From IMG/VR virus record IMGVR_UViG_2778261453_000011, positions 1 to 13,172 of that record: DNA of 13,172 nucleotides; one strand, given 5' to 3'. The notes beneath the pieces are model-generated. The model was not told the DNA's origin and did no database searches. It saw only the letters and a program-made list of their open reading frames with translations. A program made the translations under genes and the position numbers. The DNA comes from a virus. Its lineage: Duplodnaviria > Heunggongvirae > Uroviricota > Caudoviricetes. Positions 7,633 through 11,352 of this stretch are shown in pieces. Numbering within the stretch: position 1 is the first letter of the stretch; every line of letters starts with the position of its first letter.

Positions 7633-7881
7633 TTACTTTCCATCTGATAAGTCTTTAATCTTTTGAAAAATATCTGGACGTAATTTTTCTTTTGATACGC
7701 CAGTGGTCATTTCAATGAATATCGAGAGCTTTGCAGGGGGACGCTTTTCTCTGTTCAACCAGTTCCAGACATGTTGTTGCTTTACTAAACGACCACTGCT
7801 GGCTGTGAGCTTCCGAGCCAATTCTGATTGACCACCAGCCAGAGCGATTGCCTCTGATAAGGCTAATTGCTCAGGTGTCAT
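7633..7881 (-). CDS. Cro-like / YdaS-family HTH regulator
   Basis: 82 aa, MTPEQLALSEAIALAGGQSELARKL...IEMTTGVSKEKLRPDIF; divergent from the cI-like gene across the operator region; SD AGGAGA. Confidence 0.7.
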   Translation of the reverse strand: MTPEQLALSEAIALAGGQSELARKLTASSGRLVKQQHVWNWLNREKRPPAKLSIFIEMTTGVSKEKLRPDIFQKIKDLSDGK

Positions 7882-8018
7882 AGCTTTCTCCTATCTGTAA
7901 GTAGTAAAGTTGTTGATAACTTCGATTATACAACTACAACAACTTTTATCACAACTTTTAGATGTTGGAAAGCTAAAACATAAAGTTGTAACCTCAATAA
8001 AAACGAGGGGGATATGTT
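7882..8018. promoter_or_regulatory. Right-operator-like region: divergent promoters with repeated AAAGTTGT / ACAACTTT half-sites
   Basis: AAAGTTGTTGATAAC (7906-7920), ACAACAACTTTT (7936-7947), ACAACTTTT (7951-7959), AAAGTTGTAACC (7982-7993) between the divergent cro-like and cI-like genes. Confidence 0.6.
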
Positions 8019-8705
8019 GTGAAAACATTGGCAGAAAGACTAAAAAGCGAAAGAGAAAAAGCAGGAATGAGTCAGGCGCAACTAGCTGAAAAAATTGGAC
8101 TTTCACAACAATCCGTAGCGAAAATCGAGAATGGAGAAACTCAACAGCCTCGGAAAATTAAAGAGATTGCTAAAGTGTTAGGGGTTTCTCAAAAGTGGTT
8201 GCAATTGGGCATTGAGGATAACGCGTCTTTCCCAAACCTTGTTGTAAAGGAGGCTGAAAGTACAACATTAGATCCTGACATTTTTGCAAACATTCCTGTC
8301 CTAGATGTCGAGTTATCAGCGGGTAATGGATGTTTGGCTGAAATAGTTGAATCAACTGTAGACTGGTTCCCGCTAAGAAGGATTGATTTAAGGAAAGCTG
8401 GTGTATGTGTCTCCAATGCAAAGATCGTAAAAATTTGGGGTAATAGTTTACTACCTGTACTTAACAATGGAGATTTTGTTGCTGTTGATGTTTCCCAAAC
8501 AGTTCCTATTCGTGATGGGGATCTTTATGCTATACGTGATGGCGTATTACTTAGAGTTAAAATATTGATCAATTTACCTGACGGTGGTCTGATTCTAAGA
8601 AGTTTCAATAAAGATGAGTATCCAGATGAAATACTCACCTTCGAAGATAGGCGTTCCAGAATTCACGTTATAGGTAGAGTATTCTGGTCATCGCGCACTT
8701 GGTAA
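8019..8705 (+). CDS. cI-type repressor: N-terminal XRE HTH plus C-terminal S24 (LexA-like) autopeptidase domain
   Basis: HTH MSQAQLAEKIGLSQQSVAKIENGE; Ala-Gly cleavage site (LSAGNG); Ser in GNSL and Lys in RVK as catalytic dyad candidates. Confidence 0.85.
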   Translation: MKTLAERLKSEREKAGMSQAQLAEKIGLSQQSVAKIENGETQQPRKIKEIAKVLGVSQKWLQLGIEDNASFPNLVVKEAESTTLDPDIFANIPVLDVELSAGNGCLAEIVESTVDWFPLRRIDLRKAGVCVSNAKIVKIWGNSLLPVLNNGDFVAVDVSQTVPIRDGDLYAIRDGVLLRVKILINLPDGGLILRSFNKDEYPDEILTFEDRRSRIHVIGRVFWSSRTW

Positions 8706-8879: not shown

Positions 8880-8945
8880 GTCAAAACCACATAAAGTTGT
8901 TGATAACAACCAAAACAACAACTAGATTACAACTTAAAGATGTTG
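8880..8945. promoter_or_regulatory. Left-operator-like region: second copy of the operator repeats, promoter of the plus-strand early operon
   Basis: Exact 15-bp AAAGTTGTTGATAAC at 8893-8907 (identical to 7906-7920) followed by ACAACAACT and ACAACTTAAAG. Confidence 0.5.
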
Positions 8946-9038
8946 CAGTAACGAACAGGCAGGACGCCCACGAAGTAGCCGCCGGTGGCGTATGAATGAC
9001 CGGATGATTCGTTAAATACTATGTGTAAGAGAGCGCAA

Positions 9039-9242
9039 ATGAACCGTTATTTCACATGCTCGTTTTGTGGCGCAAACGAGCTGCAGGCAAAAAAAATCAT
9101 CGCCAAAGGCGGAAAAGATGAAGTTGCTATCTGCTCTGAGTGCGTAGTCTTGTGTGTCGGGGCATTAATCAATATCAGCACAACTATTCATTTCACACCA
9201 AATGAGAATGCGCCTTTAGATGCGCGGAAATCTGGAGGTTAA
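9039..9242 (+). CDS. Small protein with ClpX-type N-terminal zinc-ribbon (C4) domain
   Basis: YFTCSFCGANELQAKKIIAKGGKDEVAICSECVVLCVGAL matches the ClpX zinc-binding domain pattern as I recall it ([32 protein letters not shown]); first gene after the left operator. Confidence 0.6.
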   Translation: MNRYFTCSFCGANELQAKKIIAKGGKDEVAICSECVVLCVGALINISTTIHFTPNENAPLDARKSGG

Positions 9243-9331: not shown

Positions 9332-9508
9332 GTGGGAATAGTTAGAAATCAAGCAGATATATTGAAAATCAGCTCTGAATTGCTTGGAGTTTTGAAAAGT
9401 GAGCTCACCACACATGGCATCGAGCCCACTGACGAAAATTTAAGTTGGGTTTTGTCGATTATTCAACAATCACTCAAGCCCAGCCTCAGCAAACTTTTTA
9501 TCGAGTAG
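9332..9508 (+). CDS. Hypothetical small protein (58 aa from GTG 9332)
   Basis: SD GGGAGG 5 nt upstream of the GTG; 3' end overlaps a convergent minus-strand ORF by 39 nt. Confidence 0.35.
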   Translation: MGIVRNQADILKISSELLGVLKSELTTHGIEPTDENLSWVLSIIQQSLKPSLSKLFIE

Positions 9509-9661
9509 TGCTTCGAACTTATCGTAAAGCTTGCTTATGTCGTCTATCGGGTTTTCTGACGTACTGTAATTTTTATCTGATGTCATGGCAGCAGTCTGAT
9601 ATGCAGTGTGAGTCTTAACCGATAGTTGGAATAAATAAAGAATTTTTTCTTCTTTGGTCAT
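9470..9661 (-). CDS. Hypothetical small protein (63 aa, MTKEEKILYLFQLSVKTHTAYQTAAMTSDKNYSTSENPIDDISKLYDKFEALLDKKFAEAGLE)
   Basis: SD AAGGAAA 7 nt upstream of ATG 9661; AT-rich; opposite orientation to the surrounding operon. Confidence 0.4.
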   Translation of the reverse strand: MTKEEKILYLFQLSVKTHTAYQTAAMTSDKNYSTSENPIDDISKLYDKFEALLDKKFAEAGLE

Positions 9662-9780
9662 AACTATTTCCTTCTTGGCTATATGAAAACACCAAGATAC
9701 CACCGAGCCTGAAGTGGTGAAAAGACAGGCACATAACAGCTAAGTATTTTCAACCAGAGAGAATCCTTAGCGTTGTGGTG

Positions 9781-10060
9781 AATGCGGCTCAGCGCACGCG
9801 GGTTAAGGTTGAGGCTGACAGTCGACCTTCTGTGGATACCCACCCGTCTGGTGTGCAACCTTCGCCAGGCACCGGGAGGCACCCGGCACCACAACTTTAT
9901 GCTGTGTGTAGTCCTGGCGGTACCAGTTTGTACCCTTGCTTCCGGCTGGTACCGCTCTTTTTACAAAACAGAGAAGAGCATCACCGGACGACGGGCTCAT
10001 AACCCAATCCATCCGGGCGGCTGCCACCGCAGGTGTTCTTCTCTGTTTTGTGGAGAAACT
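9781..10060 (+). ncRNA. Candidate structured noncoding RNA / regulatory element (GC-rich; nested inverted repeats; internal intrinsic terminator)
   Basis: GC-rich island between AT-rich flanks; GGCACC x3 (9859-9883); 10-bp perfect stem plus T-run (9917-9962); 14-bp perfect IR ACAAAACAGAGAAG / CTTCTCTGTTTTGT (9963-9976 / 10038-10051); in-frame translation is R/C/H/W-rich junk. Confidence 0.3.
9917..9962 (+). terminator. Intrinsic terminator (GCGGTACCAG - 19-nt loop - CTGGTACCGC - TCTTTTT)
   Basis: 10-bp perfect inverted repeat followed directly by a T-rich run on the plus strand. Confidence 0.55.
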
Positions 10061-10099
10061 AACCGACCTTGCAGGGTCGATATGATGAGGAGCAGCAAA

Positions 10100-10462
10100 A
10101 TGGCTAGCGAACGCAGTACTGATGTGCAGGCATTTATCGGGGAGCTGGACGGCGGCGTATTTGAAACCAAAACCGGCGCAGTTCTCAGTGAAGTCGCTTC
10201 CGGTGTGATGAACACGAAAACCAAAGGTAAGGTCTCGCTCAACCTGGAAATCGAACCATTTGATGAGAACCGTGTGAAAATCAAACACAAACTCTCATAT
10301 GTTCGCCCAACTAACCGCGGGAAAATTTCCGAAGAAGACACCACCGAAACGCCGATGTATGTCAATCGCGGTGGTCGCCTGACTATTCTGCAGGAAGACC
10401 AGGGACAATTACTGACTCTTGCCGGTGAACCTGACGGAAAACTCCGCGCAGCAGGTCATTAA
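10100..10462 (+). CDS. yfdP: YfdP-like hypothetical protein (120 aa)
   Basis: SD GAGGAG 7 nt upstream of ATG 10100; MASERSTDVQAFIGELDGG...; position and size match the first gene of the CPS-53 yfdPQRS cluster (from memory). The ORF track's longer 9782 start is rejected. Confidence 0.6.
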   Translation: MASERSTDVQAFIGELDGGVFETKTGAVLSEVASGVMNTKTKGKVSLNLEIEPFDENRVKIKHKLSYVRPTNRGKISEEDTTETPMYVNRGGRLTILQEDQGQLLTLAGEPDGKLRAAGH

Positions 10463-10527
10463 TATCGTTCTTAATTAACTGATTATTTATCTCATCACTG
10501 AATATCTTAATATAGTGAGGACTTATT

Positions 10528-11352
10528 ATGTCTCAGAACTTAGACGCAACCGCAATTAATCAAATCCATGCCCTTATTTCTGCTCAGGGTGTTAATGAAA
10601 TTATCAGTAAGATTGGTGCCGATGCTGTGGCATTGCCTGAGAATTTCCGCATTCATGATCTGGAAAAATTTAATTTAAATCGCTTCCGTTTCCGTGGTGC
10701 GCTTTCCACTGCCTGCATCGATGACTTTACCCGTTATTCTAAAGATCTTGCAGATGAAGGCACCCGCTGCTTTATCGATGCCGATAATATGCGAGCCGTC
10801 AGTGTGCTTAACCTGGGTACTATTGATGAACCAGGTCACGCAGATAACACCGCCACTCTCAAACTGAAAAAGACAGCACCGTTTTCTGCTCTGTTGTCTG
10901 TTAATGGCGAGCGTAACTCCCAGAAGTCACTGGCAGAATGGATTGAAGACTGGGCCGACTACCTTGTGGGCTTTGATGCTAATGGTGACACCATTCAGGC
11001 AACCAAAGCGGCTGCGGCAGTCCGTAAAATCACGATTGAAGCAAACCAGACCGCTGATTTTGAAGATAATGACTTCAGCGGCAAACGCTCCCTGATGGAA
11101 TCTGTCGAAGCGAAGACCAAAGACATTATGCCAGTGGCATTTGAATTTAAATGCGTTCCGGTTGAAGGCCTGAAAGAACGTCCGTTTAAATTACGCCTCA
11201 GCATTATCACTGGCGATCGTCCTGTACTGGTTCTGCGCATTATTCAGCTGGAAGCAGTGCAGGAAGAAATGGCTAACGAATTTCGTGATCTGCTTGTTGA
11301 GAAATTCAAAGACAGCAAAGTAGAAACCTTTATTGGTACTTTCACCGCCTGA
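10528..11352 (+). CDS. yfdQ: YfdQ-like protein (DUF2303 family), 274 aa
   Basis: Long clean ORF with SD GTGAGGA; size and position before the HD-domain gene match CPS-53 YfdQ (from memory). Confidence 0.7.

Follow-up and report, generated by a model that had tools for sequence, protein, structure and literature searches.

The closest described relatives of the element analysed here are the RNAs of the STnc100 family (STnc100, PasD1, PasD2 and EcOnc27), prophage RNAs that have been detected with Hfq and CsrA. PasD appears as a discrete RNA on Northern blots and its stability is Hfq-dependent, EcOnc27 is bound by Hfq, and PasD2 is the most abundant chimera partner of CsrA. Late-type members are located between the Q gene and the lysis genes, tandem arrays of them are seen, and many carry a sigma-70 consensus directly upstream (e.g. 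TTGACA-17-TAAATT, read by eye in cluster representatives). Of 101 unique family sequences, 73 have a terminator detected no further than 110 nt away. The promoters, terminators and tandem arrays of the late type together form a pattern that fits sRNA genes.

Other phage RNAs offer partial parallels. sRNAs are made at the terminators of antitermination-controlled phage operons in the case of StxS and of lambda LPR1/PreS at tL2a. The element would share its origin, a stop at an internal terminator of such an operon, with StxS (the PR'-tR' RNA of Stx phages), lambda 6S RNA and LPR1/PreS, the last of which also comes from an early-left operon; these RNAs differ from it in being 68-194 nt long, in having no large pseudoknotted domain, and in being unrelated in sequence and structure. 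HK022 putL and putR, which we located by eye in the early leaders and then folded, are likewise leader RNAs of the early operons in an N-less lambdoid phage, upstream of terminators. However, put consists of two simple hairpins (~60-70 nt) directly after the promoter of both early operons, whereas the present element is found in the left operon only, as a single copy in the window (the whole 13,172-nt stretch of viral DNA analysed), and a relationship to put was rejected. HK022 itself gave no STnc100 match with Rfam (20000-40751) and none with our model R1 (whole genome). The lambda nutL-N leader shows the same order of promoter, RNA recognition element, long irregular hairpin and Shine-Dalgarno sequence of the first gene, and helix P5 of the window, a 5-bp stem with a pentaloop, has the geometry of boxB. 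It differs in that the window has no N gene, no conserved boxA, an AGGCA loop that is not GNRA-like as in boxB, and a terminator between element and hairpin. A lambda-type nut site was also rejected: no N-like protein was found among the PL-proximal ORFs, and the boxA look-alike at the terminator (CGCUCUUUUUAC; CGCUCUU, 9953-9959) is not conserved in ST64B or e14 and is taken as a chance match. Outside phages, the eps-associated RNA (EAR) of Bacillus is a structured operon RNA of ~120 nt that favours read-through at terminators further downstream; it folds differently, is found in a different phylum and is not phage-borne.

A composite RNA leader related to STnc100

Positions 9772-10079 (+) of the window are a folded non-coding RNA leader at the head of a prophage early-left operon. 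Four RNA modules follow one another: a pseudoknotted domain, a linker, a terminator, and hairpin 2 together with the small hairpin 3 (Table 1). The leader is a composite of a known RNA family and a separate hairpin module. The original prediction is upheld where it saw, at the start of the early operon, a structured element that is non-coding and contains a terminator; its treatment of the region as a single element is not. Its start at 9781 also has to be moved upstream, to 9772 for the closing helix and 9742 for the Rfam match. The features that it listed are all present: three copies of GGCACC (9868-9873, 9878-9883 and 9885-9890), a raised GC content (0.54-0.57 in the region against ~0.40 on either side), the perfect 10-bp stem with its T-run, and, after the terminator, a long inverted repeat (9963-9987 with 10027-10051, 15 perfect outer pairs) whose extension by wobble pairs folds as a continuous basal stem of 20 bp. 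A third conserved hairpin, at 10064-10079, had been missed.

Table 1. Coordinates of the leader modules and of neighbouring promoter and gene features in the window.
Feature	Positions	Strand	Basis or remark
PL-analogue early-left promoter, TTGATA-17-TAGATT (8900-8928)	8892-8940	+	promoter scan; repressor-controlled
Operator half-sites AAGTTGT flanking the PL analogue	8894-8900; 8929-8935	+; -	sequence read
Possible weak own promoter, AAGACA-17-TATTTT, 8 of 12 consensus positions	9722-9750	+	read from sequence; not conserved
STnc100/PasD-like pseudoknotted domain, 124 nt, five helices	9772-9895	+	Rfam match, MFE fold, covariation, permutation test
P1 closing helix, perfect 9 bp, GTTGTGGTG with CACCACAAC	9772-9780 with 9887-9895	+	inverted-repeat pair
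J1/2 (AAU)	9781-9783	+	
P2 (GCGGC/GC-A-CGC variant)	9784-9799	+	
Pseudoknot, 5' strand AAGGUUG with 3' strand CAACCUU	9805-9811 with 9856-9862	+	3' strand inside the P4 loop
P4	9846-9853 with 9863-9870	+	
P5 (CCGGG-AGGCA-CCCGG)	9872-9886	+	
Single-stranded linker UUUAUGCUGUGUGUAGUCCUG, 21 nt	9896-9916	+	alignment of early-left sequences
Intrinsic terminator, 10-bp GC-rich stem (9917-9926 with 9946-9955), 19-nt loop, UCUUUUU (9956-9962)	9917-9962	+	
Hairpin 2, 20-bp purine/pyrimidine basal stem with two apical hairpins (three-way junction)	9963-10051	+	fold, covariation
Unpaired conserved spacer GGAGAAACUAAC	10052-10063	+	nearly all alignment columns invariant
Hairpin 3 (CGACCU-UGCA-GGGUCG)	10064-10079	+	ends 7 nt before the yfdP Shine-Dalgarno
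Shine-Dalgarno GAGGAG (10087-10092) and yfdP CDS (10100-10462, 120 aa), first gene past the leader	10087-10462	+	translation, PHROG 204

The Rfam model RF02076 (STnc100) matches the window at 9742-9964 over its full length (model positions 1-206 of 206) with 44.6 bits and an E value of 4.5e-7, which is significant yet under the gathering score of 47 bits. Other early-left copies score 40.6 (phiES15), 37.5 (118970_sal3), 35.1 (ST64B) and 29.2 bits (e14). The core architecture of the family is found at 9772-9895, with the GGUG/CACC closing helix, AAU, a variant P2, P4 and P5; more than 100 other copies in the family share its 22-nt core (CACCGGGAGGCACCCGGCACCA) without a difference, and the terminator begins 21 nt past P1, the family median distance being 25 nt. 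In common with STnc100, PasD1/PasD2 (EPEC) and EcOnc27/sRNA103 (EHEC), the window copy has the GGUG...CACCA closing helix, the AAU junction, P4 and the complete P5 of Table 1. It further shares with them a linker and intrinsic terminator downstream and, like them, lies in a prophage, in sense with an operon under antitermination control. In contrast to them, it falls below the gathering score, its P2 is another GC-rich hairpin with a bulge, it lies early-left behind cI and not in the interval from Q or stx to the lysis genes, a clear promoter of its own is lacking, its linker is conserved within the subfamily, and two extra conserved hairpins follow on its 3' side. In the searchable literature there is no experimental detection of the early-left copies, and a discrete Hfq-associated sRNA is known for late-type relatives only. 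Judging by these sequence comparisons, the RNA of 9772-9962 is a divergent relative of the prophage RNAs STnc100, PasD and EcOnc27 and belongs to an early-left subfamily; an sRNA or a leader function is its candidate role.

Covariation and conservation of the modules

The folding energy of the core is marginally better than chance (z ~ -1.9), and the real support for its structure comes from homology and covariation. The folding and covariation analysis proposed along with the original prediction gave the Rfam family match and showed that the helices covary across the family, also with the window sequence included. With an alignment made by MAFFT only, the nested helices score 0.213 against 0.114 in shuffles, and none of 500 shuffles reaches the observed value. 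When 77 copies are aligned by fitting to the model, changes on both sides are seen at 19 of 25 pairs and the score is 0.270 against 0.125, with a maximum of 0.098 in slid controls; this alignment favours the structure, and the MAFFT-only alignment points in the same direction.

The pseudoknot, which the consensus structure displayed with the Rfam match lacks, is supported by covariation. It occurs as 35 distinct duplexes, and the mean longest complement is 6.40, compared with 4.59 +/- 0.14 under permutation (0 of 2000 as high). The permutation was carried out in fixed windows, as shuffling of each sequence is uninformative given the too large search space. Within the early type, AAGGUUG/CAACCUU is replaced by AAGGCUG/CAGCCUU in phiES15. 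The STnc100/PasD family thereby gains a covariation-supported pseudoknot, and is shown to occur in two distinct phage contexts. Covariation also supports the terminator and both downstream hairpins.

The linker motif UGC..GUG.AGUC.U is invariant in six early-left sequences (window, e14, ST64B, phiES15, LLS and L081), making the linker more conserved than the terminator stems, which differ among the five types that those six sequences represent. The stem sequence is wholly different in ST64B, phiES15, LLS and L081, with the hairpin and U-tract kept in each. The linker is a candidate seed or factor-binding site; apart from its own antisense strand, no complement to it is found in the 13-kb window. 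A look-alike of ops (GGCGGTAC) at 9916-9923 is conserved in neither ST64B nor e14 and is likewise taken as a chance match.

Hairpin 2 is a second conserved RNA structure, one without a family in Rfam. The segment 9963-10099 folds with -54.7 kcal/mol (z = -3.99), 98% of the alignment cells of the basal stem are paired, and the pair 62-131 occurs as GC, AU and CG. Throughout its 122 occurrences in viral contigs, hairpin 2 stands behind a core variant and terminator. With a conserved basal stem of 20 bp, it has the ~20 bp or more of double-stranded RNA expected of an RNase III substrate, and it is a plausible RNase III or processing signal, cleavage itself being a prediction. In the spacer that follows, GGAGAAAC (10052-10059) was part of the collecting search pattern and is invariant by construction, so that only the AAC end is independent. 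The position of hairpin 3 is occupied by four different stem sequences, ahead of different first genes, and four of its six pairs have changes on both sides.

Operon context and transcription

The leader lies ~840 nt downstream of the PL-like promoter, on the sense strand, ahead of yfdP-yfdQ-yfdR. The operator half-site AAGTTGT occurs eight times in the window against 2.2 expected, with clusters in the cI/cro intergenic region (7907-7989) and at the PL analogue. In all nine phage types compared (window, e14, SfV, ST64B, 118970_sal3, phiES15, mEp460, LLS and L081) the element is found downstream of a cI-like repressor gene, on the same strand, and before the early-left genes. In LLS and mEp460 no ORF or other feature precedes it on the PL transcript, whose predicted start lies ~190-270 nt upstream.

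A convincing own promoter is absent from every early-left copy examined. The candidate at 9722-9750 falls under the scan threshold, nothing that could serve as an own promoter passes the promoter scan, and the -35 region of the candidate is altered by a 1-nt indel in 6 of the 10 close relatives. Reg-Seq recorded a start site upstream of e14 ymfH in one condition, in one replicate only. With no convincing promoter of its own, the element is expected to depend on PL for expression and to be repressed in the lysogen.

No N-like antiterminator was found in the early-left lambdoids e14, SfV, ST64B, phiES15, mEp460 and LLS. That no N-like gene is visible in the operon had been remarked from the sequence, and the Pfam and PHROG scans agree, as does the LLS literature, whose authors note the missing N and propose a put-like RNA mechanism. 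According to Pfam and PHROGs, the PL-proximal ORFs encode a ClpX zinc-finger-like protein beside others whose function is unknown. The leader marks the exact site where ST64B- and LLS-type lambdoids without an identifiable N must control early-left transcription, and so provides a concrete experimental target for how they do it.

Proposed release of an sRNA and competing readings

Among the candidates put forward in the original prediction, most support goes to a prophage sRNA with its 3' end at the terminator, as the domain and terminator match the Hfq-detected STnc100 sRNA family. We regard it as evenly balanced whether termination does release an sRNA of ~200 nt, read-through transcripts being processed into yfdP mRNA. 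Transcription from PL, perhaps aided by the weak promoter at 9722-9750, would mostly stop at 9962 and set free the ~200-nt RNA, which, if started at PL, must be a processed product. In the manner of its Hfq- and CsrA-associated relatives, this sRNA would use the conserved linker to act in trans, and the folded 5' domain would be a platform for stability or protein binding. Polymerases that read through would transcribe hairpin 2, whose 20-bp stem may be an RNase III or processing signal comparable to that of the lambda N leader, and hairpin 3 would become a protective 5' stem-loop of the yfdP mRNA. The strong conservation of hairpins 2 and 3 and the position behind the repressor gene in nine of nine phage types suggest that the read-through transcript matters, and hence that termination control matters, which counts against a reading as an sRNA alone. 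Weighing against it as well are the Rfam score below the gathering score, the dependence on PL, the lack of a linker complement in the window, and two changes that the K-12 e14 copy has in the most conserved hairpin.

Termination control is central to the main rival, retained from the same prediction and ranked below the sRNA: a cis-acting antitermination or attenuation device, analogous to nutL or putL with an unrelated fold, that lets RNA polymerase pass 9917-9962 and later terminators. We consider such a device possible, at clearly less than even probability, and hold the same tentative view of its mode of action, in which the domain, with or without the linker, acts on its own polymerase or recruits a host or phage factor. 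It would account for the constant placement behind the cI-like repressor and at the very front of the PL transcript in LLS and mEp460, directly upstream of a conserved terminator that has to be passed for yfdPQR and, in e14, for xis and int; it also agrees with the lack of an N-like protein in Pfam and PHROGs and with the put-like suggestion of the LLS authors, and hairpins 2 and 3 would be conserved cis structures on the read-through RNA. However, the homologous late-type RNAs do end at terminators of their own, build up as discrete sRNAs and form tandem arrays, and the element has no sequence or structural similarity to put, no conserved boxA, and no second copy in the early-right operon of the window, unlike nut and put. 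We think it rather unlikely that the composite leader supplies the early antitermination or attenuation function missing from the e14/SfV/ST64B/LLS lambdoids and is a new class of cis-RNA unrelated to nut and put; if it were, the free-standing STnc100 and PasD sRNAs would be spin-offs of the leader fold. A riboswitch-like sensor, in which formation of the neighbouring terminator would depend on binding of a small molecule or an ion, is very improbable. Its appeal lies in the aptamer-like architecture (closing helix, multi-helix junction, pseudoknot, invariant unpaired AAU, GCGnG and AGGCA loop) and in the terminator coming next, at a median of 25 nt, but no conserved alternative pairing joins the 3' part of the domain to the terminator's 5' arm (complementarity of 4.53 compared with 4.75 +/- 0.12 in permuted pairs), terminators and linkers are generic and unrelated between subfamilies, the context is one of phage operons rather than metabolic genes, and the relatives accumulate as stable sRNAs.

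Two further readings do without an RNA, and the sRNA reading is preferred to both. A DNA-level element (a miniature inverted-repeat element, recombination site or origin) could explain the long inverted repeats and the mosaic exchange of modules at sharp boundaries, such as the homology from 9915 in mEp460 and Stx2c phages. It has almost no probability in our judgement: pairing is kept through G-U wobbles, which are relevant in RNA only, the element always runs in the sense direction of the operon, only one strand carries the U-tract, and the unit is not surrounded by target-site duplications or terminal repeats. The earlier suggestion of a small inverted-repeat DNA element was accordingly dropped, the stems changing sequence yet still pairing in a strand-specific unit that ends in a U-tract terminator. 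Hardly more credible is a protein, either YmfH (a 75-aa ymfH-like ORF at 9775-10002) or an N-terminal extension of YfdP, the ORF 9782-10462 being open in frame with the yfdP start at ATG 10100. These open frames exist, contrary to the prediction that there is no convincing one, and comparison shows that neither is coding, which bears that prediction out in substance; a coding frame conserved across homologues, which would have spoken for a protein, was not found. In favour of a protein, all 15 homologues examined have 189-378 nt of open frame ahead of yfdP, RefSeq annotates ymfH in K-12 e14, and the variable sites of the extended yfdP frame (5/4/10 by codon position) show a weak third-position excess. 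But the E. coli version is separated from the Salmonella one by indels of 1, 1, 20 and 1 nt, by which the frame shifts from one conserved block to the next, the open length varies (189, 243, 279, 318 and 378 nt), and variable sites are distributed 10/5/4 in the ymfH frame against 1/3/15 in the true yfdP CDS. Further, PGAP calls ymfH homologues "frameshifted" pseudogenes, SfV and ST64B have no CDS annotated at the locus, there is no Pfam match, yfdP has its own GAGGAG 7 nt before its ATG, and the paucity of stops in all six frames is an effect of composition.

What is called "ymfH" in e14 of E. coli K-12 is a decayed copy of the leader RNA on which an ORF has been annotated. RefSeq names the homologues of the window yfdP as yfdP, and the yfdP and ymfH literature makes no mention of an RNA at the locus. 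A scan of contigs with the 15-mer TGTGGTGAATGCGGC gave one true E. coli match among the 120 matches listed, the rest being almost all chance. The sequence is widespread: of 5426 complete E. coli genomes, 2864 have a match, and in 1742 of these it spans at least 80% of the query. Its relabelling as RNA takes in e14 ymfH as well as many calls of "frameshifted hypothetical protein".

Setting and extent of the leader

The flagged observation is real: the element is a structured RNA belonging to a known sRNA family, with a conserved unpaired linker, a real terminator and no coding capacity, and the read-through RNA carries two conserved structures. As the STnc100 family is already known, the element is not a new class. 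What is new is an early-left subfamily with a fixed position behind cI, a pseudoknot in the STnc100 family, the re-assignment of ymfH as RNA, and a conserved three-way-junction hairpin (hairpin 2) without an Rfam family.

The window belongs to the e14/SfV/ST64B type of lambdoid prophage, and its yfdP-yfdQ-yfdR layout, downstream of the repressor, is also found in near-identical E. coli prophages and in phage SfV. The operator half-site AAGTTGT occurs eight times in the window against 2.2 expected, with one cluster in the cI/cro intergenic region (7907-7989) and a second at 8894-8935 that flanks the promoter TTGATA-17-TAGATT; these sites define OR and OL. The promoter, downstream of cI, is the PL analogue, and the flagged region, ~840 nt from it, therefore lies within the leader of the early-left operon.

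The original prediction started the region at 9781; the region stands, but this start is too late, given a perfect 9-bp helix whose 5' strand begins at 9772. The three GGCACC repeats and the perfect 10-bp stem followed by a U-tract are present as described, and the long inverted repeat folds as a 20-bp basal stem with two apical hairpins (hairpin 2). An extra small hairpin (hairpin 3) lies just 5' of the yfdP Shine-Dalgarno sequence. Folding is strong for segment 9963-10099 (-54.7 kcal/mol, z = -3.99) and only marginally unusual for the core (z about -1.9); the case for a structured element rests on comparative data.

Features of the window and of the comparison loci
Feature	Sequence	Positions	Strand
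cro-like gene (CII/CP76-like gene next)	window	7633-7881	-
OR, between cro and cI	window	7900-7990	
cI-like repressor gene (HTH, S24 peptidase)	window	8019-8705	+
OL, downstream of cI	window	8892-8940	
73-aa ORF	window	9021-9242	+
63-aa ORF	window	9470-9661	-
STnc100 match	window	9742-9964	+
Core domain	window	9772-9895	+
9-bp helix	window	9772-9780 with 9887-9895	+
Pseudoknot AAGGUUG/CAACCUU	window	9805-9811 with 9856-9862	+
Linker	window	9896-9916	+
Terminator	window	9917-9962	+
Terminator stem	window	9917-9926 with 9946-9955	+
Hairpin 2	window	9963-10051	+
Hairpin 3	window	10064-10079	+
yfdP (then yfdQ, yfdR)	window	10100-10462	+
e14 copy	L002	4097-4219	
mEp460-type core	L127	2855-2989	
LLS-type core	L350	2318-2452	
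L249-type core	L249 and related contigs		
Tandem array	L058	4379-5461	
Tandem array	L019	372-989	
Tandem array	L027	1725-2342	
Tandem array	L011	2325-3351	
C4 antisense RNA and isrK	L003	1409-1597	-
C4 antisense RNA and isrK	L126	96-284	-
C4 antisense RNA and isrK	L127	323-511	-

Past the PL-like promoter, the product of the first ORF is 73 aa long and contains a C4 zinc finger of ClpX type (PF06689, E 1.4e-10; PHROG 5259). Salmonella phage 118970_sal3 has a homologue at the matching place. A ClpX zinc-binding domain in free form might disturb ClpXP substrate or adaptor recognition. The 63-aa ORF, which has a good Shine-Dalgarno sequence and belongs to a conserved phage family (PHROG 2605, E 1e-33), lies in the interval that separates PL from the RNA domain and runs antisense to the PL transcript; in e14 the equivalent place is occupied by ymfI. 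Convergent transcription here could alter the amount of PL transcription arriving at the leader. The closest genome match, E. coli O18ac:H14 strain 873.10, carries at about 10040-10700 of its locus (L001) a ~655 bp insertion that contains a hypothetical ORF of 91 aa. The insertion falls between the RNA domain and the small ORF on the minus strand, which makes the upstream part of the leader a hotspot for inserted cargo.

Family membership, helices and pseudoknot

An Rfam scan of the whole window, one of the checks originally proposed, gives a single match, to the full STnc100 model (RF02076), with 44.6 bits, below the gathering score of 47 (E 4.5e-7). Same-position copies in Cronobacter phage phiES15, Salmonella phages 118970_sal3 and ST64B, and E. 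coli K-12 prophage e14 also match below threshold (29-41 bits). In a scan of viral contigs, the 22-nt core CACCGGGAGGCACCCGGCACCA occurs at more than 120 loci, in ~25 sequence clusters that have little in common beyond this core and the GGUGAAU-CCCCC...GGGGG start. Covariation, another of the checks proposed, supports P1, P2, P4 and P5: in a MAFFT alignment of 32 representatives, 80% of cells are paired, compared with 42-51% with slid partners, and the covariation score is 0.213 versus 0.114 in shuffles. The covariance model R1, built on this alignment, finds 77 copies in the comparison loci. In the model-fitted alignment, which is biased towards the structure of R1, 19 of 25 pairs have changed in both partners, and the score reaches 0.270 (shuffles 0.125, slid partners at most 0.098). 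The window's R1 score of 78.1 bits is partly by construction, because it sat in the seed alignment; the independent evidence for its membership is the Rfam match.

The segment directly 3' of P2 is complementary to the P4 loop in nearly all clusters, although the sequences differ (CCAGUC/GACUGG, CCAGAC/GUCUGG, AUCAGC/GCUGAU, ACUGGAU/AUCCAGU and AGACUGACAAA/UUUGUCAGUCU, among 35 distinct duplexes in 53 non-redundant sequences). The mean longest complement is 6.40 nt versus 4.59 +/- 0.14 with loops swapped among sequences, a value as high being reached in 0 of 2000 permutations. phiES15 carries a compensated pair, AAGGCUG/CAGCCUU, and does not keep the rival local hairpin of the minimum free energy fold. 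The Rfam consensus structure line given with the STnc100 match is without the pseudoknot.

The window's copy is of the early-left type, which in nine of nine phage types (the window, e14, SfV, ST64B, 118970_sal3, phiES15, mEp460, LLS and contig L081) follows the cI-like repressor gene on its strand and precedes the first early-left genes. On the PL transcript of LLS and mEp460 it comes before any other feature, ORFs included. Early-left copies have a variant form of P2, and none has a convincing promoter of its own. Their linker motif UGC..GUG.AGUC.U, which does not vary among the six aligned sequences (five sequence types), shows higher conservation than the terminator stems; these are wholly different in ST64B, phiES15, LLS and L081, with the U-tract retained.

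At least three other core variants occur at this locus ahead of the same terminator and hairpin 2 module. The mEp460, L249 and LLS types, all outside the R1 seed, retain the P1 helix and AAU junction and match R1 weakly (LLS 24.6 bits, E 3e-4; mEp460 24.5 bits, E 0.003; L249 16.9-21.6 bits, E 0.002-0.02). P5 of the LLS type is GGUGG-AGGCA-CCACC. In the L249 type P5 is missing, while P1, P2 and P4 are retained along with the pseudoknot, here GUAUGG/CCAUAC. A kissing-loop contact is suggested for the mEp460 variant, where the loops of P2 (GCUGAU) and P5 (AUCAGC) are perfect complements.

Hairpin 2 has no match in Rfam. It occurs 122 times in viral contigs, always 3' of a core variant and terminator; among 22 aligned sequences, 98% of basal-stem cells are paired, with one pair seen as GC, AU and CG and several GU-to-GC or GU-to-AU switches. 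Its sequence is also largely conserved, including the apical motif GACGGGCUCAUAACCCAAUCCA. The spacer GGAGAAAC on its 3' side is conserved among the collected sequences by construction, since it belongs to the 17-nt pattern that gathered them. Hairpin 3 has four unrelated stem sequences at the same position before different first genes (yfdP, xisE and two others). Across the 50 pairs of the terminator and hairpins 2 and 3 jointly, covariation is 0.132 (shuffles 0.086, slid partners no higher than 0.077), with a bias in favour of the structure, as it was taken from the window's own fold.

Coding capacity and the ymfH annotation

The leader region is stop-poor in all six frames, and every homologue has an open frame upstream of yfdP. 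The protein-coding reading is nevertheless rejected, and the original view that there is no convincing coding frame is borne out by open-frame lengths (189 to 378 nt), by indels of 1, 1, 20 and 1 nt between E. coli and Salmonella leaders, by codon positions, and by the lack of any Pfam match. Among close relatives, variable sites by codon position are 1/3/15 in yfdP; the leader gives 10/5/4 when read in the ymfH frame and 5/4/10 when read as an extension of yfdP. Across its 124 nt the core varies at only 2 sites, compared with a density of about 5 per 100 nt in yfdP. PGAP calls ymfH homologues frameshifted pseudogenes.

K-12 "ymfH" is therefore an ORF call over a decayed RNA copy. The e14 copy, annotated as protein YmfH, scores only 29 bits with Rfam, and its P5, a hairpin that is invariant elsewhere, has lost an A and carries a G-to-A substitution (CCGGG-GGCACCCGA); in this defective prophage it has probably decayed.

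Small RNA or cis-acting signal

Among the functions originally proposed, the strongest support, from STnc100 family membership, is for a prophage sRNA whose 3' end is at the terminator. STnc100, PasD1/PasD2 and EcOnc27 are prophage sRNAs without assigned function in the literature, detected by Hfq co-purification, RIL-seq and Northern blot, and PasD2 is the most abundant partner among CsrA RIL-seq chimeras. Late-type copies are flanked by a Q-like antiterminator gene on one side and by holin, endolysin or esterase genes on the other, and have the appearance of autonomous sRNA genes: many have a near-consensus sigma-70 promoter directly upstream (cluster representatives, by eye), and they form tandem arrays of three to five units. 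Of 101 unique sequences from the whole family, 73 have a terminator no more than 110 nt away (median distance 25 nt). The arrays have ~250 nt spacing, most units have their own terminator, and linkers differ; P1 shows compensatory changes between neighbouring copies (e.g. GGUG/CACC to GAUG/CAUC).

The best reading, which is as likely to fail as to hold, combines an sRNA made by termination with a processed read-through yfdP mRNA. Most transcripts would end at 9962, giving an Hfq- or CsrA-type sRNA with the linker as seed; hairpin 2 would be the site at which read-through RNA is cleaved, within its 20-bp stem, leaving hairpin 3 as a 5' stabiliser on the yfdP mRNA. The lambda N leader with its RNase III site is a precedent for the layout of such cleavage. 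sRNAs made at terminators of antitermination-controlled phage operons have been described, namely StxS and lambda LPR1/PreS at tL2a.

The main rival, less likely than the sRNA reading, is that these phages use the domain in cis as an antitermination or attenuation signal. The remark that no N-like gene is visible agrees with the loci scanned, in which none was found near PL, and the authors of the LLS study report no N homologue and propose a possible put-like RNA. However, late-type homologues do terminate and accumulate, the domain has no similarity to put, and the early-right operon is without a copy. The sRNA and cis-acting models are compatible rather than mutually exclusive, and if the leader were an N-independent antitermination device of this phage group, it would be of much greater interest. 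A classical riboswitch is unlikely, because a conserved antiterminator pairing is absent, and the suggestion of an inverted-repeat DNA element is rejected.

In ST64B, 118970_sal3 and mEp460, a C4 antisense RNA (RF01695, 80-84 bits) adjoins isrK (RF01394, 64-67 bits), within or beside an antirepressor/regulator gene (ImmI-like module); these pairs are unannotated in those records.
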